Both the position numbers and the translations under genes were made by a program. Below the pieces are notes generated by a model. That model did no database searches and had not been told where the DNA came from. It worked only from the letters and a program-made list of their open reading frames with translations. This document shows positions 91 through 12,713 of a stretch of DNA of 43,705 bases, one piece after another. The first letter of the stretch is position 1, and each line of letters opens with the position of its first letter. Origin of the DNA: Candidatus Limnocylindria bacterium (lineage in GTDB: Bacteria; Chloroflexota; Limnocylindria; P2-11E); the NCBI GenBank assembly GCA_038200085.1, contig JBBPYG010000104.1, positions 1-43,705 of the forward strand, given 5' to 3'.

Positions 91-331
91 GCGAGGCGCG
101 CCCGTTCCGGGTGTTCCCGGCCGCTGGCCGCAAGGGCGGCGAGCGGCCCCATTCCGACGAGCGCGCCCCGCGCGTCGGCCCCGACGACGAGCGCGAGCGG
201 CCCCGCGAGGTGCGTGCCGAGCCGGAGTGATCCTCCGCGGCCTCGCATGACGAGGCCGCGCGATGAACCGCGAGGTGGCCCGCGACGTATCGTTTGCGGG
301 TCACTTCTGGAGTTCGCGTGGGGGTGATGCG

Positions 332-1924
332 GTGGGTCAGCTGACATATCGGTCGATCGCGCTGCTCGCGGCCGTCGCGCTCGTGCTCGCCGCATGCGCC
401 GGCGGTTCGCCGGCTGGCCAGGGATCTGCGTCCGGCGCGCCGACGGGCAAGCCGGTCACCGGCGGCACCGTCACGATGGCGCTCGAGGACGATCCGATCA
501 ACTTTGACCCGCTGCTGTCCCGGGCGTTCATCGACCGCAACATCCACTACCAGATCTACGACGCGCTCGTCGGCATCGATGAGAACGGGAAGATCATCCC
601 CCGTCTCGCGACGAAGTGGGACGTCGCGGCGGACGGCAAGACCGTGACGTTCACGCTGCGCACCGACGTCAAATACCACGACGGCATGCCCTTCGACGCG
701 GCGTCGGTGAAGTGGAACCTCGACCGTTACCGGACGACGCCTGGCTCCCAGCGGAGCGGCGAGCTCGCGCCGATCGACAGCGTGGCCGTCGTCGATCCGG
801 CCACGGTGAAGCTGAACCTGAAGGCACCCTTCGCGCCGCTGCTCGCCAGCCTCGTCGACCGCGCGGGCATGATGCTCTCGCAGAAGGCAGTGGAGGCGGG
901 CGGCGCGGACTTCACGCGCAAGGCCTTCAAGGCCGGCACCGGCCCCTTCATGCTCACCGAGGCCGTCAAGGACGACCACATCACGCTCGAGCGCAACCCC
1001 AGCTGGTGGGGCAAGGACAAGGACGGCAACCAACTGCCGTACCTCGACAAGGTCATCGTCAAGCCGATCAAGTCGAGCGACGTGCGCTTCACCAACCTTC
1101 GCACGGGAGACGCGCAGGTCGCCAACAACATCGCCGGCAAGGACATCACGACCGCGAAGTCGGAATCGTCGCTCACGTATCAGGAGAAGCCGGCGTACTC
1201 GTTCCGCAGCATGATCCCGAACCGCGCGAAGGGCTATCTCTTCGAGGAGGCGCGGTACGTCAAGGCGGTGTCGCTCGCCGTCGACCGCAAGGAGCTCGTC
1301 GACAAGGGCTACTTCGGCCTCGGCGCCGCGGGCTACGGCACGATCGCCCCGCCGCACTTCGCCTTCGACCAGAACTTCAAGCCGTTCGAGAAGGCCGACC
1401 CCGACGCGGCGAAGAAGCTCGTGCAAGAAGTCGGCAAGGGACCGCTGACCTTCAAGTTCCTCGTCGCCAGCGGCGACCCCGCGACGCTCACCATCGCGCA
1501 GCTCATCCAGGCGCAGCTGAAGAAGGCCGACATCACGATGGACATCGAGCAGGTCGAGTTCGCCAAGATCCTCGATCTCCAGACGGCGCACACGTTCAAG
1601 GACATGACCTTCGTCGGCTGGAGCGGACGCGTCGACCCGGACGGCAACACCTACGACCACGTCTACACCGGGCGCCCGAACAACGACTCCTCGTACTCCA
1701 ACAAGCAGGTCGACCAGCTTCTCGACCAGTCGCGCACGACGAACGACGAGGCCAAGCGGAAGGACGCCTTCCGCCAAGCGGAGAAGATCTTCGTGCAGGA
1801 TGACCCGGCCCGCGTGTGGCTCGGCTTCGGCGCCGCACAGCTGCTCACGTCCAAGAAGGTCGTGGCGCCGCCGGTGTACCCCGACCAGATCGTCCGCTTC
1901 GAGCTCATGTCCATGGCGAAGTGA
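332..1924 (+). CDS. Peptide/nickel ABC transporter substrate-binding lipoprotein (SBP family 5)
   Basis: Lipobox LAAC and SBP_bac_5 motifs (LATKWDV..DGKTVTFTLR..VKYHDG.PFDA..VKWNLDR, GTGPF). GTG at 332 follows GGGGGTGA, so it is preferred over the ORF-track start at 263. Confidence 0.93.
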   Translation: MGQLTYRSIALLAAVALVLAACAGGSPAGQGSASGAPTGKPVTGGTVTMALEDDPINFDPLLSRAFIDRNIHYQIYDALVGIDENGKIIPRLATKWDVAADGKTVTFTLRTDVKYHDGMPFDAASVKWNLDRYRTTPGSQRSGELAPIDSVAVVDPATVKLNLKAPFAPLLASLVDRAGMMLSQKAVEAGGADFTRKAFKAGTGPFMLTEAVKDDHITLERNPSWWGKDKDGNQLPYLDKVIVKPIKSSDVRFTNLRTGDAQVANNIAGKDITTAKSESSLTYQEKPAYSFRSMIPNRAKGYLFEEARYVKAVSLAVDRKELVDKGYFGLGAAGYGTIAPPHFAFDQNFKPFEKADPDAAKKLVQEVGKGPLTFKFLVASGDPATLTIAQLIQAQLKKADITMDIEQVEFAKILDLQTAHTFKDMTFVGWSGRVDPDGNTYDHVYTGRPNNDSSYSNKQVDQLLDQSRTTNDEAKRKDAFRQAEKIFVQDDPARVWLGFGAAQLLTSKKVVAPPVYPDQIVRFELMSMAK

Positions 1925-1951
1925 CGCCGGGCTGACCGGGCACCGGCCACC

Positions 1952-2908
1952 GTGGGCACCTACATCGCGCGCCGACTGGTGCTCATGGTGCCCGTCGCGT
2001 TCCTCGTCTCGGTCATCGCGTTCGCGCTCCTCCGCCTGACGCCGGGCGACCCGGTGATCGTCTACGCCGGGGAGGAGCGCGATCCCGCGACGCTCGATGC
2101 GCTGCGGCGGGAGTTCGGGTTGGACCAGCCGCTGCCATCGCAGTACGTGACGTGGGTCACGCGCGCGGTGAGATTGGATTTCGGCCGGTCGATCCGGACG
2201 CGGCAGCCCGTCGCCGAGGCGATCGTCGAGCGCTTCCCCGCGACGCTCGAGCTCGGCGGCATCGCCCTCGTGCTGTCCATCACGGTCGGACTGGTGATCG
2301 GGACCCTCTCGGCCCTTCGCAGGAACTCGCCGCTCGACCTCGCCGCGAGCGGCTTCACGCTGGCGGGCGTCTCCCTGCCGAACTTCTTCCTCGGCCTGGT
2401 GCTGATCCTCGTGTTCGGGCTGGCGGTGCGCCTGTTCCCGCCCGGCGGCTACACCGCGTTGAAGGACGATGCGGTCGACAACCTTCGCCATTTGGTGCTG
2501 CCCGCGGTGACGCTCGCGACCGCGAGCATGGCCGTCAACCTGCGGCAGGTGCGCTCGAGCCTGCTCGACGTGCTCGGCCAGGAGTACATGCGGACGGCGC
2601 GCGCTAAGGGCCTGCGCGAGGCCGTGGTCGTCGCCCGCCACGCGCTCAAGAACGCGCTGATCCCCGTCGTCACGATCTTCGGTCTCCAGGTTGGAGCCAT
2701 CCTCGAGGGAGCGGTGATCACCGAGCAGGTCTTCTCGTGGCCGGGCGTGGGCAAGCTCGCGGTCGACAGCATCGCCGGTCGCGACTATCCCGTCGTGCAG
2801 GCGATCGTGCTGCTCTCGGCCCTGTCGTTCATGTTCACGACGCTCGTCGTCGACGTCCTCTACGGGATCCTCGACCCGCGGATCTCCTACGGACGGCGCG
2901 CCGCATGA
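1952..2908 (+). CDS. Peptide ABC transporter permease (DppB/OppB type)
   Basis: YIARRL N-terminus, PGDP, DFGRSI, EAA motif TARAKGL, ITEQVFSWPGVG, LDPRI. Confidence 0.95.
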   Translation: MGTYIARRLVLMVPVAFLVSVIAFALLRLTPGDPVIVYAGEERDPATLDALRREFGLDQPLPSQYVTWVTRAVRLDFGRSIRTRQPVAEAIVERFPATLELGGIALVLSITVGLVIGTLSALRRNSPLDLAASGFTLAGVSLPNFFLGLVLILVFGLAVRLFPPGGYTALKDDAVDNLRHLVLPAVTLATASMAVNLRQVRSSLLDVLGQEYMRTARAKGLREAVVVARHALKNALIPVVTIFGLQVGAILEGAVITEQVFSWPGVGKLAVDSIAGRDYPVVQAIVLLSALSFMFTTLVVDVLYGILDPRISYGRRAA

Positions 2909-3735
2909 GGGAGTTCGCGCGGCGCAACCCGCGGATCATCGTCGGCGGGACCCTCGTGGCGCTCCTCGTGTTCGCCGCGATCTTCGCGCCGGTCATCTCG
3001 CCGTACGACCCGACGGCCGCAGATCCCTCGGTGTCGCTCGAGGGTCCCAGCGCGCAGCACTGGCTCGGGACTGACGACCTCGGCCGCGACGTCCTCTCGC
3101 GCACGATCTGGGGGTCACGGATCTCGCTGTCGGTAGGACTCATCGCGGTGGGCATCGGGCTCGCGATCGGCGTGAGCCTCGGACTGCTGGCGGGCTACTT
3201 GGGTGGCGCGTTCGACCTCATCGCGATGCGGGGCATCGACGCGCTCCTGGCCTTCCCGGCGCTGATCCTGGCCATCGCGATCACCTCCGCGCTCGGCCCA
3301 CGGATCGAGAACGCGATGATCGCGATCGGAGTGGTCGCCGTCCCGTTATACACGCGGCTGACGCGAGGCCAGGTGCTCAGCATGCGCGAGCGCGAGTTCG
3401 TCACGGCCGCCCGCACCGTGGGAGCGACGCCGTTCCGGATCGTCGCGCGCCACATCTTCCCGAACATCACGAATCCGCTGGTCGTGCAAGCCACGCTGTC
3501 GATCGCGTTCGCGATCCTGGCGGAGGCGTCGCTGTCCTTCCTTGGGCTCGGGGCCCAGCCTCCCGCTCCCACGTGGGGGTTCGACATCAATTACGGGCAG
3601 CGCTACCTCTCCAATCTCAAGTGGTGGATGAGCGTGGGGCCCGGGCTGGCCATCTTCGTCGCGGTGTTCGCCTTCAACTTCCTCGGCGACGCGCTCCGCG
3701 ACGCTCTCGACCCGCGCCTGCGCCGGAGCGTGTGA
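2905..3735 (+). CDS. Peptide ABC transporter permease (DppC/OppC type)
   Basis: ATGA overlap with the upstream permease; HWLGTDDLGRD, EFVTAARTVGA, LSFLGLG, GDALRDALDPR. Confidence 0.95.
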   Translation: MREFARRNPRIIVGGTLVALLVFAAIFAPVISPYDPTAADPSVSLEGPSAQHWLGTDDLGRDVLSRTIWGSRISLSVGLIAVGIGLAIGVSLGLLAGYLGGAFDLIAMRGIDALLAFPALILAIAITSALGPRIENAMIAIGVVAVPLYTRLTRGQVLSMREREFVTAARTVGATPFRIVARHIFPNITNPLVVQATLSIAFAILAEASLSFLGLGAQPPAPTWGFDINYGQRYLSNLKWWMSVGPGLAIFVAVFAFNFLGDALRDALDPRLRRSV

Positions 3736-4590
3736 CGCCCGGCGGGCTCGGCGGGGACCCTCCGGACGACGGACGTTCCGGAGGGCGCGGGCTTCCGACC
3801 GGCACAGTGACCTTCCTGTTCACCGACATCGAGGGTTCGACGCGGCTTTGCACGAGCTCGGCGACGCGTATGCCGACGCACTGGCCGAACACCGCGCCGC
3901 CCTGCGCAAGGCATTCGCGGCACATGGAGGAGTCGAGGTCGACACGGAGGGCGATGCGTTCTTCGTCGCGTTCGCGCGCGCTTCGGACGCGCTCGCTGCC
4001 GCGGCGGAGGCGCAAGGTTCGCTCGGTGGCCGGATCCGGGTGCGGATGGGCGTGCACACCGGCGAACCGGTGCTGACGGACGAGGGCTATATCGGCATCG
4101 ACGTGCACCGCGCGGCGCGCATCGCCGCGGCCGGCCACGGCGGCGCTCGTCGCTTCGACGATCACATCGACGATCGGCGTGCGCGATCTCGGCGAACTCA
4201 GCGATCGCGCTGCGCTGCTGGTGCTCGACAACTTCGAGCACCTGCTCGATGCCGCATCCACCGTCGGGAAGATCTTGAGCGCCGGGTCGCGCACGAAGGT
4301 GCTTGCGACCAGTCGCGCTCCCCTGCGCATCGATGGCGAGCGCGAATATCCGGTCGAACCGCTTCCGGACACCGACGCACTCGTCCTGCTCCCCGAACGC
4401 GCGCGCGCCGTGCGGGCCGATTTCATGCCCGACGCCTCGACGCTCGAGATCTGCCGCCGGCTCGACGGATTGCCGCTCGCGCTCGAGCTTGCGGCCTCGA
4501 GGCTGCGCTCGCTCGGCTCCGCCGCCCTGCTGGAACGCCTGGGACGGCGGCTTCCGGTCCTCACCTCTGGTCGCCGCGACGCCCCCGGGC
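3732..4590 (+). pseudogene. Frameshifted, internally deleted class III adenylate/guanylate cyclase-STAND NTPase gene
   Basis: LPTGTVTFLFTDIEGSTRL, then a frame change near 3848 to DTEGDAFFVAF..RMGVHTGEP..VHRAARIAAAGHGG, then another frame with LLVLDNFEHLL, ATSRAPL, ICRRLDGLPLALELAA. The Walker A region and the C-terminal TPRs are missing. Confidence 0.85.
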
Positions 4591-4806
4591 GGTGGCGCTC
4601 GCGGAAACGGCGGTCGGCCAGTGACCTGGCCGTCCGATCGAGCGGCCGTCCGACGGCTGATGCGGCTCCCGCCGGGCCCGCCCCGGCAGGGCGCTGGCCA
4701 ATTGTTCGGGATTTGACGGTGGCGGTGTTGCCCCGAGTCTGTTGCGCATTGCGTCGCGGCGTAGTCTCGCCACATACCAATAGCGAAAAAGAGAGGTACC
4801 ACAACA

Positions 4807-5721
4807 ATGTCCAGCTCAGCACTCCAGCAGGTGATCCGCCGCGCCGTCTCCGACGCCTCGTTCCGCCAGCAGCTCCAGGCCAACCCCGCCTCGGCCCTCC
4901 GGGGCTTCGACCTCACGGCCGACGAGTCGGCCGCCCTTTCGAGCCGTGACCCCGGGCGCCTCGCGGCGTTCGGTGTCGACCAGCGCATCAGCAAGGCCTT
5001 CAGCCTCGGCGGCGCCGGGATCGGCTCCGACGCCACGACCGACGTCCCGAACTCCACCGGCGGCGTGACGCGGCTCGAGATGGAGCCAGGCGACGCCACC
5101 CGCCTCGCCGTTCACGACAGCGGGAGCGCAGGGTCCGGCGCGACGAACGCCTTCGACAGCGGCAACGCCGCATCCGGCGCCACGAACAGCCTGGACAGCG
5201 GGATCGTCGGCTCCGGCGCCACGAACACGCTCGACAGCGGGACCGCGGGTTCGGGAGCGACGAACACCCTCGACAGCGGCACCGCCCTCTCGGGCGCGAC
5301 GAACACCCTCGACAGCGGCTCCGCCGGCTCGGGCGCGACCGACGTGCTCGACAGCGGCAACGCCGCCTCCGGTGCCGCCCCGGCGTGGCACGATGACCCG
5401 CAGCCCGTCGCTGCGACCTCCGACTCCAGCGCCCCGGCGTGGCGCGATGACGCGCAGCCCCTCGCGGCTTCCAGCGACGCCTCGGGCTCGGCCAGCGCGG
5501 TCCACGACGTGGCCCCGTCCGACCTCTCTCTCGGCGCGGAGGACGACGCGCCGCTCGGATCGCTGAGCGCCGTCCACGACGTGGCGCCGGTGGACCTCAG
5601 CTCCGACAGCATCGCCGCGACCGGCGGCCACGACGGACTCGAGTCGATCAGCGTCGATGGCGACGTCGACAGCGGCGCCTTCGACCACAGCCAGATCCTG
5701 CACCCGAACGAGCCCCAGTAA
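4807..5721 (+). CDS. Protein with an NHLP-clan (Os1348-like) N-terminal leader domain and a Ser/Gly/Asp-rich tandem-repeat C-terminus; candidate RiPP precursor
   Basis: RBS GAGAGG upstream and strong GC3 codon bias. N-terminus VIRRAVSDASFRQQLQANPASALRGFDLTADE..L..DQRISK, followed by 13-aa repeats and an intrinsic terminator. Confidence 0.8.
   Translation: MSSSALQQVIRRAVSDASFRQQLQANPASALRGFDLTADESAALSSRDPGRLAAFGVDQRISKAFSLGGAGIGSDATTDVPNSTGGVTRLEMEPGDATRLAVHDSGSAGSGATNAFDSGNAASGATNSLDSGIVGSGATNTLDSGTAGSGATNTLDSGTALSGATNTLDSGSAGSGATDVLDSGNAASGAAPAWHDDPQPVAATSDSSAPAWRDDAQPLAASSDASGSASAVHDVAPSDLSLGAEDDAPLGSLSAVHDVAPVDLSSDSIAATGGHDGLESISVDGDVDSGAFDHSQILHPNEPQ
5116..5376 (+). repeat. 39-bp (13-aa) in-frame tandem repeat, about 6.7 copies, consensus DSGxAGSGATNTL
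   Basis: Units start at 5116, 5155, 5194, 5233, 5272, 5311 and 5350 (the last is partial). Confidence 0.95.
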
Positions 5722-5741
5722 GGGGCGCGGACCTCGATGCG

Positions 5742-5775
5742 AAAAGGGCCCGGCACGATGCCGGGCCCTTTTTTT
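5742..5775 (+). terminator. Intrinsic terminator, probably bidirectional
   Basis: AAAAGGGCCCGGCA-CGA-TGCCGGGCCCTTTTTTT between convergent genes. Confidence 0.92.
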
Positions 5776-5828
5776 CGCGCCCGCTGTGACGCGCTCGATC
5801 GCGAACGCGGATCGGGCCCGCGCGGGCG

Positions 5829-6245
5829 TCAGAGCTCCTTGCCGAATTCCACGGTCGGCTCGCGCCGGTAGCCGAGCGCGTCCCAGAACGCCATGGCGTG
5901 TTCGTTGTCGTCCCACACGATCAGGTTCAGCTTCGGGCAGCCGAGCTCCCGCAGCCGATCCTCGATCCTGGTCACGAGCGCGCGACCGATGCCGCCGCGA
6001 CGGCGATCGGGATCCGTGGCCACGTGGTAGAGCCAGCCGCGCCGGCCGTCCCACCCGGCGAGCGCGGAACCGACGATGCGCCCATCGTCCTGCGCGAGCA
6101 GGAACAGGCCCTCGTTCCTCTCCGCGAAACGGGCCAGGGAAGCCGCGTCGTCGCCCGGCCGGATGCGCAGTCCGCAGCGCGTCCAGAACGCCAGCAGTGC
6201 ATCCGCATCCGAAGGAACGAATGCGCGGATCTCCACCGCTGACAT
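5829..6245 (-). CDS. GNAT family N-acetyltransferase (YpeA-like)
   Basis: AGWDGRRGWLYHVA..PDRRRGGIGRAL and GCPKLNL motifs; start set at ATG 6245. Confidence 0.9.
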   Translation of the reverse strand: MSAVEIRAFVPSDADALLAFWTRCGLRIRPGDDAASLARFAERNEGLFLLAQDDGRIVGSALAGWDGRRGWLYHVATDPDRRRGGIGRALVTRIEDRLRELGCPKLNLIVWDDNEHAMAFWDALGYRREPTVEFGKEL

Positions 6246-6255
6246 ACTGCGACCC

Positions 6256-7101
6256 ATGCGCGTGGGGCTGTTCGACGTGGAGATCTTCAGCGACGGCACG
6301 TTCAAGCTCGACGGAGGTTCCATGTTCGGCGTCGTGCCGAAGGTGCTCTGGGAGCGCCACAAGCCGGCCGATGAGCGCAACCGGATCACGATGGATATGA
6401 ACTGCCTGCTGATCCGCGACGCCGACGGGCACGTCGTCGTCGTCGAGACGGGCGCCGGACCGAAGCTCACCGACCGGTCGCGCGACATCTACGGCATCGA
6501 GCGCCCGCCCGCGCTCCTGACGGAGTTGGCGGCCCGCGGAGTGAAGCCCGAGGACGTGACGCTGGTGATCAACACGCACCTTCATTTCGACCACTCCGGG
6601 GGCAACACCTTCCGCGACGGCGACCGGCTCGTCGCCACGTTCCCGCGAGCCACCTACGTCTTCCAGCGCACCGAATGGGAGGATGCGATGCATCCGAACG
6701 AGCGCACCCGCGGCTCGTACTTCGCCGATGACTACGCGCCGCTCGAAGCTGCCGGGAAGCTGGAGCTGGTCGACGGCTCCGTCGAGATCCTCCCCGGCAT
6801 CCGGCTCGACCAGGTCCGCGGCCACACCCGCGGAACGCAGACCGTCCGCGTCATCGGCAAGGAGACGCTCTTCTTCTGCTCCGACTTCATGCCCGACCGC
6901 GCGCACCTGCCGCTGCCGTGGATCCCCGCGTTCGACCTCTTCCCACTCGATACGCTGGAGGCGAAGCGCACGATCCTGCCGCGCGCCGCCGAGGAACGGT
7001 GGATCGTCGGCTTCACGCACGACGTACCGCGCTTCGGGCGCATCTCCGCCGCCGACGGCAAGTACACGTACGCAGAGCTGCCCGCCGGCCAGGAGCGGTG
7101 A
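6256..7101 (+). CDS. MBL-fold metallo-hydrolase (YtnP-like)
   Basis: DGTFKLDGGSMFGVVPK, THLHFDHSGG (HxHxDH), GHT. Confidence 0.92.
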   Translation: MRVGLFDVEIFSDGTFKLDGGSMFGVVPKVLWERHKPADERNRITMDMNCLLIRDADGHVVVVETGAGPKLTDRSRDIYGIERPPALLTELAARGVKPEDVTLVINTHLHFDHSGGNTFRDGDRLVATFPRATYVFQRTEWEDAMHPNERTRGSYFADDYAPLEAAGKLELVDGSVEILPGIRLDQVRGHTRGTQTVRVIGKETLFFCSDFMPDRAHLPLPWIPAFDLFPLDTLEAKRTILPRAAEERWIVGFTHDVPRFGRISAADGKYTYAELPAGQER

Positions 7102-8327
7102 TCGGGCGCGAGCCGCTTTCGTCCGTGGATCTGCCCCGCACGGCGTCGACCGTCATCGTCGGAGGCGGCATCGTCGGGGCCGCCGCCGCCTTCTTCCTCA
7201 CCGAGCGCGGCGAGCGCGACGTCCTTCTCCTAGAGCAGGATCGGCTCGGCGCCGGCTCGACCGGCGGCGGGCTGGGCGGGATACGCCATCAGTTCGCCGA
7301 CGAGCTCGATGTCCGGCTCTCGCAGCTCGCGTCGCGATTCTGGCGCGAGTTCGAGGATCGGACGGGCGCGCGCCACGACTTTGAAGAGCGCGGCTATCTG
7401 TTCGTGGCGGAGACCGGCGAGGGCCTGGAGCAGCTCCGCGCGCCGCTGCCGCTTTACGAGAAATGCGGTCTGCCTGTGGAGATGCTTGACCGCGTCGCGA
7501 TGCGTGAAGCGGTGCCAGGGATGCGCGTGGACGATCTCGTCGGCGGCCGGCTCTGCGCGCGAGACGGCTACGGCGATCCGCTGAGCGCCCTCGCTGGCCT
7601 CTCCGCCGCCGCGGTGCTCGCCGGCGCGCGCGTCGAGGAGGGCGTTGCCGTGGAGCGTCTCGTGCGCGACGGCGAGCGGGTGACGGGGGTCTCCACGGCC
7701 CGAGGCGACGTCTCGGCCGAACGCGTGCTCGTGGCGACCGGGTGCTGGACCGCGGCACTCTGCGCGACCGCCGCCGTCGCCGTCCCCATATGGCCCTACC
7801 GCCGGTCGATCATGGAGGCCGGGCCGTACCCTGCGCTCGCGAGGATCCCGCTGGTGGTCGAATGGGAGTCGGGGTTCCACTTCCGCCCGAAGGGGCAGTA
7901 CCAGCGATTCGCCATGCCGAACCTCACCGCGGATGGAGGGATCGAGAAGCGCCCCGGGTCGCCGCCCGGCTCGTCCGCGGCGCTCGACTTCCCGCCGCTG
8001 GAGGTGCCGGCGTCGCTGGAGCCGTGGGTCAAGGCAAGAGCCGCGTGGCGTCACCCCGCGTTCGCCGACATCCGGATCGCGAGGTCCTGGTCGTGTTTCT
8101 ACGAGATGACGCCCGACGACCATCCGATCGTCGGGCGCGTTCCGGGCGTCGAAGGTCTCGCCATCGCCGCGGGGTTCTCGGGGCACGGCTTCATGCACGC
8201 CCCCGCGACGGCGCAGCTCGTCACCGAGGAACTGCTCGACGGTCGCGCGCGCACGCTCGACATCGGCGACCTGTCCCTCGACCGCTTCATCGAGGGGCGC
8301 CACGCCTTCACGCCGACCGTGCTCTGA
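7098..8327 (+). CDS. FAD-dependent oxidoreductase (sarcosine oxidase beta/DadA family)
   Basis: GTGA overlap with the upstream gene; IVGGGIVG, GAGSTG, YEMTPDDHPIVG, GFSGHGFMHAP. Confidence 0.92.
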   Translation: MIGREPLSSVDLPRTASTVIVGGGIVGAAAAFFLTERGERDVLLLEQDRLGAGSTGGGLGGIRHQFADELDVRLSQLASRFWREFEDRTGARHDFEERGYLFVAETGEGLEQLRAPLPLYEKCGLPVEMLDRVAMREAVPGMRVDDLVGGRLCARDGYGDPLSALAGLSAAAVLAGARVEEGVAVERLVRDGERVTGVSTARGDVSAERVLVATGCWTAALCATAAVAVPIWPYRRSIMEAGPYPALARIPLVVEWESGFHFRPKGQYQRFAMPNLTADGGIEKRPGSPPGSSAALDFPPLEVPASLEPWVKARAAWRHPAFADIRIARSWSCFYEMTPDDHPIVGRVPGVEGLAIAAGFSGHGFMHAPATAQLVTEELLDGRARTLDIGDLSLDRFIEGRHAFTPTVL

Positions 8328-10197: not shown

Positions 10198-11652
10198 ATG
10201 CCGAAGATCGTGTTCGGGACCGACGGCTGGCGAGCGAGGATCGCCGAGGAGTACACCTTCGACGCGGTCCGCGTATGCGCGAACGCGGTGGGTGAGTGGG
10301 TCGCGCGGCAACCCGACGGTCCGTCGCGCGGCGTCGTCATCGGCTTCGACCGGCGCTTCGCGTCCGAACACTTCGCCGCCGCCGCGGCGGAGGTGGTCGC
10401 GGCGCACGACGTGAACGTGCACCTGGCGTCCGCCGCGGCGCCGACGCAGACGTTCTCGTGGGCGACGATGCGGCGCAACGCGAAGGCGGGGATCGTGATC
10501 ACCGCGAGCCACAACCCCTGGCCCGACAACGGATTCAAGGTGAAGGCCGAGACCGGCACGTCCGCGGCGCCCGAATTCGTGGCCGAGCTCGAGGCGCTGA
10601 TCCATCCGATCGAGAACACGCCCGAAAAGGTCGCGCGCGTCCCTCTCGACGAAGCCAAGCGGCGCGGCCGCGTCGACGTCTTCGATCCGGCGCCGGACTA
10701 CCTCGCGCACGTCGGCGAGCTGTTCGATCTCGAGGCCTTCCGCGGGGCGGGCTACACGGTCGTCTGCGAGCCGATATACGGCTCCGCGTCGGGCTACTTC
10801 CCGCGTCTCATCGGCGGCGGAAAGACGAAGGTCATCGAGCTGCACAGCGAGCGAAATCCCTATTTCGGCGGCGTGAACCCGGAACCGATCCCGCCGAACA
10901 TCGATGAATTCCTCGCCCGCATCCCGATCGAGGGCGCGGACGTCGGGCTCGCGGTCGACGGCGACGCCGACCGCGCGGGTCTCGCCGACGAGCGGGGGAA
11001 GTTCGTGACGACGCTCACGATGTACGCCCTGTTGATGTGGTATCTGCTCGAGGTCCGCAAGCTGCGGCAGCCCGTCGTGAAGACCGTGAACATGACTTCC
11101 ATGGCCGACCGCCTCGGCGAGAAGTACGGCGTGCCCGTGCACGAGGTGCCGGTGGGGTTCAAGTACATCGCCCCGAAGATGCAGGAGACCGGCGCGATGA
11201 TGGGGGGCGAGGAGTCGGGCGGATTCGGTTTCGCGATGCACATGACCGAGCGCGACGGCGTCGTGGCGGATCTCTTCTTCCTCGACTTCATGCTCCGCAC
11301 GAAAAAGCGCCCGTCGCAGCTGATCGCGGAGCTGATGGACATGGTGGGACCCTCGTTCTACCTCCGCCGGGACGTGCGCTTCGATGCCTCCGCCTACCCC
11401 GCGGAGAAGCGGCGGATCATGGCGACCCTGGGTGGGGAGTCGCCGAAGACGCTCGCCGGCCACGCCGTCGCGAAGGTCGTGCAGCTCGACACGAAGGACG
11501 GCACGAAATTCTTCCTCGACGACGGATCGTGGCTCCTGGTCCGGCTCTCCGGCACGGAGCCGCTGGTGCGCGTCTACGCTGAGACGAAGGCCGACGGTGA
11601 GCTCGCGCCGCTCCTCGATGAGGGAACGAAGATCGTGAAAGAGGCAAGTTGA
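10198..11652 (+). CDS. Phosphoglucomutase/phosphomannomutase family protein
   Basis: FGTDGWR, ITASHNP, DGDADR, GGEESGG, RLSGTEPLVRVY. Confidence 0.95.
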   Translation: MPKIVFGTDGWRARIAEEYTFDAVRVCANAVGEWVARQPDGPSRGVVIGFDRRFASEHFAAAAAEVVAAHDVNVHLASAAAPTQTFSWATMRRNAKAGIVITASHNPWPDNGFKVKAETGTSAAPEFVAELEALIHPIENTPEKVARVPLDEAKRRGRVDVFDPAPDYLAHVGELFDLEAFRGAGYTVVCEPIYGSASGYFPRLIGGGKTKVIELHSERNPYFGGVNPEPIPPNIDEFLARIPIEGADVGLAVDGDADRAGLADERGKFVTTLTMYALLMWYLLEVRKLRQPVVKTVNMTSMADRLGEKYGVPVHEVPVGFKYIAPKMQETGAMMGGEESGGFGFAMHMTERDGVVADLFFLDFMLRTKKRPSQLIAELMDMVGPSFYLRRDVRFDASAYPAEKRRIMATLGGESPKTLAGHAVAKVVQLDTKDGTKFFLDDGSWLLVRLSGTEPLVRVYAETKADGELAPLLDEGTKIVKEAS

Positions 11653-12713
11653 TGGACGCGGGACCGATCGCATCGATCGAGAAGATCAAGGCCGCCGATC
11701 CGGGCGGGATGCTCCAGCGGATCAAGGACCTGCCGATGCAGGTCAAGGACGCCTGGCGGATCGCGCAGGGCAGCGAGGTGCCGGCGGAATTCCGCGGGGC
11801 CAGGAACATCACGGTCCTTGGGATGGGCGGCTCGGCCATCGGCGGCGAGTTCGCTGCGGCGCTGCTCGCCGACGAGCTCACAGTGCCGATGAGCGTCCAC
11901 CGGGACTACGGCCTTCCTGCGTACGTCGGGAAGGATTCGCTGGTGATCGCGTCGTCATATTCCGGCAACACCGAGGAGACGCTGTCCGGATTCGAGGAGG
12001 CTCGCGGCCGCGGCGCCCGCGTACTCGCGATCACGACCGGCGGCAAGCTCGCGGCGGCGGCGAAGGCCGCGGGGTTCCCGGTCGTCTCCTTCCAGTACCA
12101 GGCGCAGCCGCGCGCCGCGCTGGGGTACTCCCTCGCGCTGGTCCTGGGCCTGGTCGGCAAGCTCGGCTTCGCCAGCGACCAGACGACGGTCGTCGAGGGC
12201 GCGCTCGGCGACCTCGCCAAGCTCGAAGGCAGACTCGACGAGAACGCCGCGACGAACGAGGCGAAAGCGCTCGCGCTCGAGCTCTCCGGACGGGTCCCCG
12301 TGGCCTTCGGCGCCGGCGTCATGGGCGTGATGGCGCGCCGCGTAAAGGACCAGTGGAACGAGAACGCAAAGAACTGGGCAGCGTTCGACGTCATGAGCGA
12401 GCTGAACCACAACGCGGTCGTTGGCTTCCCGAACCCTCCCGTGGCCAAGGAGGCGCTGACCGTCCTGCTGCTCCGCAGCGCGCGCGACAACGCGCGGCAC
12501 AAGGTGCGCTTCGACGTGACGGCGGAGCTCCTCGACCGGGCCGGGATCGCGCACAAGACTCTCGAGTTCCCGGGCGCCTCGGCGCTCTCCGAGGTCCTCC
12601 AGATGGTGCTGTTCACCGACCACGTCTCCTTCTACATCGCGCTGCTGAACGGCGCGGACCCCTCGCCGGTGAAGTCGATCGACTATCTCAAGGACCGGCT
12701 CGCCAAGGCGTAG
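11652..12713 (+). CDS. Bifunctional phosphoglucose/phosphomannose isomerase (SIS domain)
   Basis: GMGGSAIGG, SYSGNTEET, ENAK, ELNHN. Confidence 0.92.
   Translation: MDAGPIASIEKIKAADPGGMLQRIKDLPMQVKDAWRIAQGSEVPAEFRGARNITVLGMGGSAIGGEFAAALLADELTVPMSVHRDYGLPAYVGKDSLVIASSYSGNTEETLSGFEEARGRGARVLAITTGGKLAAAAKAAGFPVVSFQYQAQPRAALGYSLALVLGLVGKLGFASDQTTVVEGALGDLAKLEGRLDENAATNEAKALALELSGRVPVAFGAGVMGVMARRVKDQWNENAKNWAAFDVMSELNHNAVVGFPNPPVAKEALTVLLLRSARDNARHKVRFDVTAELLDRAGIAHKTLEFPGASALSEVLQMVLFTDHVSFYIALLNGADPSPVKSIDYLKDRLAKA

Follow-up and report, generated by a model that had tools for sequence, protein, structure and literature searches.

The stretch analysed here, 43,705 nucleotides of Candidatus Limnocylindria bacterium DNA (contig JBBPYG010000104.1 of GCA_038200085.1; hereafter the window), carries at 4807-5721 on the forward strand a gene for a 304-amino-acid (aa) protein in which an Os1348-family, leader-type domain is followed by an acidic repeat tail. 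In related genomes, most genes of this kind sit in a conserved cassette with a membrane protease bearing cyclic-nucleotide-binding domains, a 71-aa Cys/His-rich protein and a Crp-family regulator. In the window's genus, the precursor gene, as we call it, has moved to a new site by an ATP-binding cassette (ABC) permease gene and a gene pair encoding a GNAT protein and a metallo-beta-lactamase (MBL), and the cassette stands on another contig, where no gene fills the precursor slot. Direct observations cover the protein's family and architecture, the synteny of the cassette, the move of the gene, their co-occurrence across genomes and the intactness of the catalytic motifs. On balance, we lean towards the view that the 304-aa protein is a substrate or partner of the cassette protease, acting in trans, and that the protease would cut it near an RxSK/GG junction under cyclic-nucleotide control.

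The gene, its leader-type domain and its tail

The 304-codon open reading frame has a third-position GC content (GC3) of 0.91-0.93, like the neighbouring real genes of this 70% GC window, and is therefore coding. A purine-rich ribosome-binding stretch read from the sequence, GAAAAAGAGAGG (4785-4796, +), lies 10 nt upstream of its ATG, and GGAGG-type sites occur at the equivalent place in cassette-located relatives. Past the C-terminal end of the protein (...HPNEPQ), folding located an intrinsic-terminator-like hairpin, GGGCCCGGC/GCCGGGCCC (5741-5775, no strand assigned), between an A run and a T7 run, where it separates the convergent precursor and GNAT genes. Its dG is -44.8 kcal/mol (z -5.1), and none of 200 shuffles was equally stable; a scan of 3700-6600 for consensus promoter and terminator patterns returned no sites, leaving the hairpin unlisted despite its fold. 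The gene thus has the ribosome-binding site and strong terminator of its own that an earlier note on this DNA had ascribed to it. Four public runs from two studies supply contigs that together cover 3675-6600; one of these contigs spans 4223-5416, which rules out an assembly artefact at the gene's 5' junction. Of 10 sequencing runs listed as containing this DNA, none is recorded as RNA. The window's own genome (G000) is a metagenome-assembled genome of 131 contigs, 66% complete; G001 and G002, the latter 83% complete, belong to the same genus. The G001 ortholog of the protein is 74% identical, with a dN/dS of 0.12 in the domain and 0.39 in the tail, the latter value indicating that the tail is under constraint.

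Residues 5-62 (4819-4992, +) form an Os1348-family, LigA-like helical domain, matched by NF038399 (Os1348 family NHLP clan protein; NHLP, nitrile-hydratase-like leader) at 66.1 bits against a cut-off of 40; a six-frame search of the genome with the same model gave 68.8 bits for this gene. The best Pfam match, Frankia_peptide (PF14407), which is precomputed on nearly all relatives, reached 34.8 bits (E 2e-8) and stayed under its gathering score of 48. Thresholds were likewise missed for TIGR04509 (20.6 bits, cut-off 34) and for the NHLP leader model TIGR03793 (17.9 bits over residues 6-32, cut-off 50.9), and LigA and Nif11 matched weakly. The 304-aa protein is an Os1348-family member by the curated model and is outside TIGR03793 and Frankia_peptide by threshold. 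Frankia_peptide proteins are predicted to be ATP-grasp-modified peptides, and no ATP-grasp of the type associated with peptides that are made by ribosomes and modified post-translationally (RiPPs) was found in the window or the cassettes.

Sequence searches against solved structures agreed with this placement. A profile of 42 relatives (alignment A2) matched the solved Os1348 chain 6lk7_A over positions 3-57 (E 6.7e-10, 42 bits); the single 304-aa sequence reached E 0.098 against 6lk7, and its search of the PDB returned low-complexity noise (fibrinogen, antibody light chains). Next in the profile search came SonA, from the RiPP precursors with LigA domains, and nitrile hydratase alpha chains (E ~2e-3), a ranking in line with ECOD, which places Frankia_peptide, Nif11 and NHase_alpha together in a 'LigA-like' group that occurs in RiPP leaders (PMC12353581; this and the other papers cited are drawn on in part). 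Every residue invariant in the subfamily by alignment A2 (R12, D16, F19, R20, L23, A30, L36, E40, R60, S62 and K63) is kept in the window protein. The NHLP-clan, Os1348-type N-terminus proposed in the earlier note is borne out by both the curated model and the 6lk7_A profile match, and the N-terminal sequence that it quoted is as given for residues 1-63. The gene is the one NF038399 match in G000; a second candidate for a paralogous leader, on contig C24 (11.5 bits, E 0.5), is noise.

The prototype of the family, Os1348 (85 aa; PDB 6lk7) from Pseudomonas sp. Os17, is treated as a precursor whose state depends on neighbouring genes, and it lies beside the GNAT Os1349, a soluble HExxH peptidase and a SagB-type dehydrogenase (PMC7726476). 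The N-terminal domain of the window protein is homologous to it; the window protein differs in its length of 304 aa, in an acidic tail of about 240 aa and in the partner of its family, a membrane M50-type protease with cNMP domains.

Family-wide similarity ends, in the alignment, at the junction motif R-I-S-K-A-F-S-L-G-G (residues 60-69; 4984-5013, +). RISK occupies residues 60-63 and AFSLGG residues 64-69, with GG at 68-69 and the GGAG segment of the earlier note at 68-71; the leader-domain interval 4807-5010 reaches G68. All 42 aligned relatives, the short forms among them, keep R60, S62 and K63. The domain ends in RxSK in 191 of 194 family members, frequently with A-F-x-L-G-G after it; Gly stands at +5 in 138 and at +6 in 107 of the 191 (72% and 56%). 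The RxSK/AFxLGG junction is a candidate recognition or cleavage site, and cleavage there is what the motif would predict.

Searching by indexed words retrieved 53 further proteins (182-488 aa) in which the domain is N-terminal and the tails look unrelated; the sources of some give them as 'Candidatus Limnocylindria' or 'Chloroflexota', and the name 'Os1348 family NHLP clan protein' is already attached to one of them. An exhaustive profile search matched 2280 cluster representatives with E<=1e-3, of which 369 reached E<=1e-10 and 79 reached E<=1e-30; the best 150 representatives were 101-539 aa long, again with the domain N-terminal. There are at least 194 close family members, with a median length of 267.5 aa, and 173 of the 194 have at least 180 aa. 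The earlier description of the 304-aa version as unusually long is therefore not supported, as its length is the norm of the lineage. Among the relatives searched, this long-tail Os1348 subfamily is confined to one family of Candidatus Limnocylindria (Chloroflexota).

The family plan is a conserved 65-aa domain, RxSK, and then a hypervariable, acidic, nearly Cys-free repeat tail of 100-470 aa. The 40,211 tail residues of the 194 members include nine Cys and 0.5% Lys, with a median net charge of -0.105 per residue, and Ala, Gly, Ser, Asp and Thr together make up 62% of them. His-Asp pairs are enriched about threefold (201 observed, 68 expected), and a transmembrane (TM)-like stretch occurs in one of the 194 proteins. 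A repeated 6-mer is present in 144 of the 194 tails and a 7-mer in at least three copies in 50. In the window protein, the tail, fast-evolving and rich in Ala, Gly, Ser, Asp and Thr, has 239 aa, with 34 Asp and Glu against three Lys and Arg, and no Cys; a look-up in the ESM Atlas returned no entry for it. Tandem Repeats Finder identified in it a tandem 39-nt (13-aa) repeat of 6.6 copies (5115-5372, +; score 278, 79% matches), with six units of DSGxxxSGATNxL located and two units fewer in the G001 ortholog. Two repeat pairs read from the sequence follow at 5377-5589 (+), APAW(H/R)DDxQP (residues 191-200 and 209-218) and AVHDVAP (residues 231-237 and 255-261); AVHDVAP-type motifs occur in 30 of the 194 tails and align with the RAIHDSEP repeats of one cassette-located relative.

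This architecture bears on the possibility that the gene encodes a classical RiPP precursor, its leader recruiting enzymes encoded elsewhere and its tail being modified, perhaps with the repeats as multiple cores released as small peptides. In NHLP/Nif11 precursors, a long helical leader related to the nitrile hydratase alpha/LigA-like fold is followed by a Gly-Gly-type motif where similarity stops and then by a hypervariable rest, and the processing genes may be far away (PMC2887384; PMC12353581 for the fold grouping). The window protein resembles them in its long leader, in the GG at 68-69 after RxSK, in the hypervariable remainder and in its distance from the partner genes, so that an NHLP-clan leader-type domain followed by GG and a hypervariable part reproduces the plan of Haft et al. 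2010 (PMC2887384). The commonness of tail repeats also speaks for such a precursor, as does a partner protease of the type that removes RiPP leaders. The likeness ends after the junction, where the NHLP precursors have about 26 aa and the window protein about 240 aa with no Cys; tails of 100-470 aa that are strongly acidic and almost Cys-free make a classical modified RiPP unlikely. Gly-Gly is also not universal in the window's family, and the short Cys/Ser/Thr core with a C39-ABC exporter has no counterpart here, Peptidase_C39 being found in none of five family genomes. Together with the enzyme searches described below, we hold this explanation improbable, and less likely than that of a regulatory partner.

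The protease cassette and its empty slot

Of 24 further genomes in the taxonomic family of the window, 19 had an NF038399 match; the 16 genomes searched from other families of the same order or class had none. For synteny, up to 10 kb on each side of 20 matches was taken, and genes were called by codon-position GC and then clustered. Nine loci shared one gene order, in which the gene for a large protein (about 530-1100 aa) is followed by that for a 71-aa protein, by one or two genes of the long Os1348 type and by an opposite-strand gene for a 224-aa protein. All 30 Os1348 loci were scored with profiles of our own. The long type was represented by 18 copies in 14 family genomes. For 14 of these copies, the protease and 71-aa genes come immediately before; another is next to the Crp gene where its contig ends, and the three located elsewhere are those of the window, of its congener G001 and of contig C191 of G023. 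The remaining 12 copies were short (84-112 aa), ten abutting a second protease and two lying on short contigs. The gene had been called an orphan, a term that loses its force once the neighbourhoods of its homologues are inspected, as the earlier note had proposed, given that 14 of the 18 long copies sit in the protease/71-aa cassette.

Public contigs were also scanned with an alignment of the 71-aa protein, one genome per species, yielding 113 relatives of which 80 were kept; several of the contigs scanned belong to family genomes already counted. Fifty Limnocylindria-type loci extended 400 bp or more past the 71-aa gene; by filter, an Os1348 domain lay directly downstream in 47 of them, and L082 has the domain in a longer downstream frame that the filter missed. 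Two loci with an empty slot (L058, L059) encode a 71-aa protein 99-100% identical to that of G000. Within the family, the 71-aa gene is present in 16 of 25 genomes, and the long-type precursor in 14 of these 16 and in none of the other nine; because the genomes are kin, this is a pattern rather than a test. The two genomes with the 71-aa gene and no long precursor are G002 and G019, in the latter of which the slot runs off the contig.

The cassette protease is a fusion of Pfam Peptidase_M50 with two cNMP_binding domains. It matched NF041824 (daptide biosynthesis intramembrane metalloprotease) at 139 and 122 bits, the 122-bit match pairing residues 48-413 with model positions 23-365 of 379, and NF058609 (YydH/LiaK epipeptide protease) at 76 and 57 bits. 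With hhalign, its N-terminal 115 residues aligned to one bona fide PqqD domain at 89% (E 2e-6) and to a second at 41% (E 2.8e-4), both in one register. Seven Cys and three His are invariant in the 71-aa protein, whose mean identity is 87% over 12 sequences; it matches no family above threshold, and is DUF2180-like in the ESM Atlas (0.96) and by a weak Pfam match. The divergent 224-aa protein is a Crp/Fnr regulator with cNMP_binding and HTH_Crp_2 domains.

In the second protease (~650 aa) the domains are reversed, two N-terminal cNMP-binding domains preceding a daptide-type M50 core. The short Os1348 genes are convergent with it and abut it in a conserved TilS-FtsH-LigT neighbourhood (L046-L049, L051, L043 and L044; for example L049:9971-10225 and 10226-12196). 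No short Os1348-family gene of this type was found in G000.

No modifying enzyme conserved in the roughly 50 cassettes was found. Peptidase_C39, YcaO and the HExxH model TIGR04267 gave no match in five genomes (G000, G001, G002, G003 and G009; completeness is 90% or more in three), and no rival processing route was thereby found. SagB-type TIGR03605 matched in two of the five, G001 and G009 and not G000, and this model also fires in control genomes. A Pfam scan of 38 further gene calls of the window gave housekeeping families only, the sole ATP-grasp being a biotin carboxylase, which upholds the earlier statement that no maturase lies in the window. All of these results stand against the classical RiPP explanation. 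The earlier proposal that maturases act in trans, or that the leader has been reused as a targeting tag, held in part: it fits the intact cassette with an empty slot described next, and the YcaO and peptidase-ABC components were not found in the five genomes.

In G000, the cassette is on contig C110. Its protease is an intact frame of 711 aa with HEAGH at 218 and NLLPILDLDG at 310-319, and about six TM-like segments lie between residues 163 and 434. The protease is 58% identical to that of G003, and the identities given for the 71-aa and Crp genes are 80% and 70%. Where a precursor gene would be expected, the 71-aa and Crp genes stand 40 bp apart; the slot is likewise empty in G001 (150 bp) and G002 (40 bp). 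No long Os1348 copy was found in G002. The window gene thus does not occupy the slot of its long-tail subfamily, between the 71-aa and Crp genes and behind a Crp-type box. Its surroundings are shared with G001, where a peptide ABC binding protein, two permeases, the long Os1348 gene, a convergent GNAT gene, a YtnP-like MBL hydrolase and an FAD oxidoreductase are found in synteny. At 10 loci of other genera (G007 left out), no Os1348 gene lay within the 1.5-kb flanks of the GNAT-MBL pair, and therefore the window site is derived and the GNAT is a bystander. The same conservation of the pair without an Os1348 gene ruled out the GNAT as an Os1349-like partner, and an MBL near the G020 cassette, considered as a link, was rejected at 31% identity to the window MBL. 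The gene set of the Os17 cluster is accordingly not reproduced, as the adjacent GNAT is a pre-existing neighbour, TIGR04267 was found in none of the five genomes and TIGR03605 not in G000.

Displacement raises the question of a decaying, functionless relic, moved by rearrangement, deprived of its regulation and becoming a pseudogene. Its position outside the cassette without a Crp-type box would fit such a fate, as would its place directly after a decayed cyclase-ATPase gene and the lack of a copy in G002, of the same genus and 83% complete. Set against this are an intact 304-codon frame with the GC3 of a real gene, a site and frame kept in G001, dN/dS values of 0.12 and 0.39 for domain and tail, the retention of all family-invariant residues, and the ribosome-binding site and strong terminator. 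We regard a relic as very improbable.

Proposed partnership with the cassette protease

Upstream of the cassette precursors lies a Crp/Fnr-type palindrome, GT.A-N6-T.AC, with the consensus ATGTTATCAAGATCACAT and a perfect TGTGA-N6-TCACA in several. Its position is nearly fixed at -86 to -117 from the start codon, with one at -58. A matrix of the box scored above 8 in 47 of 51 cassette upstream regions (median 20.7) and in 3.6% of random 263-nt pieces of G000; as the matrix was built from the same sites, the fixed position is the stronger argument. The own cassette locus of G000 has no site above 8.

We propose that the working partner of the 304-aa protein would be the cassette, with its protease, its 71-aa Cys/His-rich DUF2180-like protein and its divergent Crp-family regulator. 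The protease would be a membrane-embedded HExxH/LDG enzyme of the site-2 type with an N-terminal domain resembling PqqD and the RiPP recognition element (RRE) and two C-terminal cNMP domains. In most genera, the precursor gene or genes have their place between the Cys-rich gene and the Crp gene, behind the Crp-type box; in the window's genus, the relocated precursor gene has a ribosome-binding site and terminator of its own, with no recognisable Crp box. The N-terminal domain of the protease may bind the leader-type domain of the precursor, and the protease, once a cyclic nucleotide is bound, may cut near the RxSK/GG junction and so part the leader-type domain and the acidic tail. The interaction, the cut, its gating by cyclic nucleotides, and what the tail becomes and does are all proposed here from sequence comparison.

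The proposal of binding and cleavage draws on the leader-removing daptide protease MpaP, in which an RRE is joined to an intramembrane site-2 protease (bioRxiv 10.1101/2023.03.08.531785), and on the alignment of the cassette protease N-terminus with PqqD. The cassette enzyme shares with MpaP, YydH and LiaK its HExxH and LDG motifs, a multi-pass membrane core and the PqqD-like N-terminal domain, and differs in its two fused cNMP domains, which occur in either order. Proteases of the YydH/LiaK kind remove leaders in epipeptide pathways. In contrast to daptide systems, the cassette has no aminotransferase, methyltransferase or dehydrogenase, and the ELExMEAP motif and C-terminal Thr of daptide precursors (bioRxiv 10.1101/2023.03.08.531785) are both missing in the 304-aa protein.

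Several observations weigh against this proposal. The protease/71-aa/Crp core persists in the window's genus with an empty slot, and none of 21 distant cassettes (Actinomycetota and other Chloroflexota) has an Os1348 domain after the 71-aa gene, although all 21 still carry protease, 71-aa gene and Crp-like gene. Since the core stands without an Os1348 gene, its main substrate may be another, perhaps the 71-aa protein. The protease is far under the curated equivalog cut-offs (122 bits against 300 for NF041824, 57 against 225 for NF058609). Its N-terminus was non-significant as an RRE both by Pfam PqqD (E 0.08-0.13) and in a PDB profile search (PaaA, E 0.38; PqqCD, E 1.1). Site-2 proteases usually cut membrane-embedded segments; unlike their usual substrates, the 304-aa protein has no hydrophobic segment (best 19-residue hydropathy 0.71). 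No exporter conserved in the cassette was found. The Crp-type box is missing at the displaced gene, the matrix scoring -0.3 upstream of the window gene and 2.7 in G001, and co-regulation with the cassette thus finds no support here; Crp control of the displaced gene seems to have been lost, and the idea that a box was carried along with it was rejected on the score of -0.3. Finally, G000 is only 66% complete. A separate element, TGTT-N7-TTGACGG, is common to the window (4702-4719) and G001 (upstream of L033:9965), about 105 nt before the start codon. It scores low on the Crp matrix and resembles a variant box of L104, whose two boxes score 11.1 and 2.8.

Os1348-free cores elsewhere, together with the missing membrane segment and exporter, make a serious rival of a regulatory or structural partner that stays whole, its domain docking on the protease, the 71-aa protein or Crp and its tail acting as an acidic disordered tether, a polyanion, or a metal- or DNA-mimicking element. 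Os1348 was crystallised as a folded, stable six-helix dimer (PMC7726476), and the domain of the window protein is strongly conserved (dN/dS 0.12), with a tail constrained in composition more than in sequence. The threefold enrichment of His-Asp pairs and the existence of the cassette core without an Os1348 gene in other phyla point the same way. Similarity nevertheless stops sharply at RxSK-AFxLGG, the pattern of a leader-core junction, and two protease architectures are each paired with an Os1348-type gene, as fits an enzyme and its substrate. We consider a protein that stays whole unlikely, and return to the 304-aa protein as a substrate or partner of the cassette protease as the explanation that we prefer.

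A broader possibility, which we offer tentatively, is that the cassette represents a cyclic-nucleotide-gated, leader-guided proteolysis system of an RRE-like site-2 protease with two cNMP domains, a DUF2180-like zinc-ribbon protein and Crp. Its clients would be whole proteins, the leader serving as a detachable tag and a second messenger releasing the acidic tail or repeat peptides, in Limnocylindria and, in a stripped form, in some Actinomycetota. If so, a LigA-like leader would carry 100-470 residues of hypervariable polyanionic repeats, and the window would show a client unlinked from its machine and from Crp control, yet retained.

NHLP-clan leaders are taken as signs of small, modified peptide products. 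In the proteins described here, a leader of this type stands at the front of chains hundreds of residues long, and two independent gene arrangements tie it to a membrane protease with cyclic-nucleotide sensors. If the link is functional, it would mean second-messenger control of leader-dependent proteolysis in an abundant uncultured lineage of soil and freshwater, and a broader view of what a leader can carry. In our searches of the literature outside subscription journals and supplements, no report was found in which cyclic-nucleotide-binding domains are linked to leaders of the Os1348, Frankia_peptide or NHLP kind or to site-2 proteases; what is new is the cassette with its empty slot, the partner system not being found described in the literature searched. 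For genome mining, the apparent orphan was explained only through comparison across genera and the empty slot on another contig, and a search of its neighbourhood alone would miss the cassette link of the displaced precursor.

Site of the displaced gene and further loci

The window opens with a run of EPAAH pentapeptide repeats (3-230, +) just upstream of an SBP_bac_5 binding-protein gene. That gene begins a peptide ABC operon (263-3735, +) of a binding protein and two permeases, after which no ATPase genes follow; the precursor gene and the cyclase relic occupy the place where DppD/F-type genes would be expected. The relic, between the permease and precursor genes at 3848-4620 (+), is a decayed gene with pieces in two reading frames. 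They match an intact 966-aa paralog on contig C125 (Guanylate_cyc, AAA_22 and TPR) at 46% and 38% identity, and another paralog is on C76. About 35 nt separate parts that are about 460 nt apart in the paralog. This stretch is missing in G001, where the gap between permease and precursor genes is 290 bp.

On the other side, the longest GNAT (5829-6488, -) and MBL (6076-7101, +) frames overlap by about 400 nt. Judging from the orthologs and from the family matches, which cover GNAT residues 83-219 and the MBL from about residue 60, the true starts probably lie near 6242 for the GNAT (~137 aa) and 6256 for the MBL (~281 aa), giving a divergent pair with almost no spacer. The GNAT ortholog of G001 (L033:10937-11355) aligns in two frames near its C-terminus, possibly through a frameshift or an assembly error.

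The cassettes themselves vary. In L116 (6304-6546) and L119 (2982-3197), two of the 21 distant cassettes, both from Actinomycetota and inspected at this place, the 71-aa gene is followed by a tiny, Lys/Ala-rich basic frame with AKKT/KKVSR-like units, a putative gene, and the Crp-like gene is on the same strand. L123, from non-Limnocylindria Chloroflexota, has a weak Os1348-domain match (3434-3652; score 40 with our own profile) just upstream of the protease-like gene, and not in the place behind the 71-aa gene. A giant sensor kinase of 1812-1969 aa is divergent from the protease gene in two genera (L035:860-6769 and L036:2025-7463, both on the reverse strand); by Pfam, that of L035 has eight GAF domains, HisKA and HATPase_c, and the L036 protein was grouped with it by clustering only. 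Further long-type copies occur past the Crp gene or on other contigs in some genomes (L064:6684-7271; L079:6489-7313 and 7333-8190; L042:6769-7518), and precursor dispersal is therefore not unique to the window's genus.

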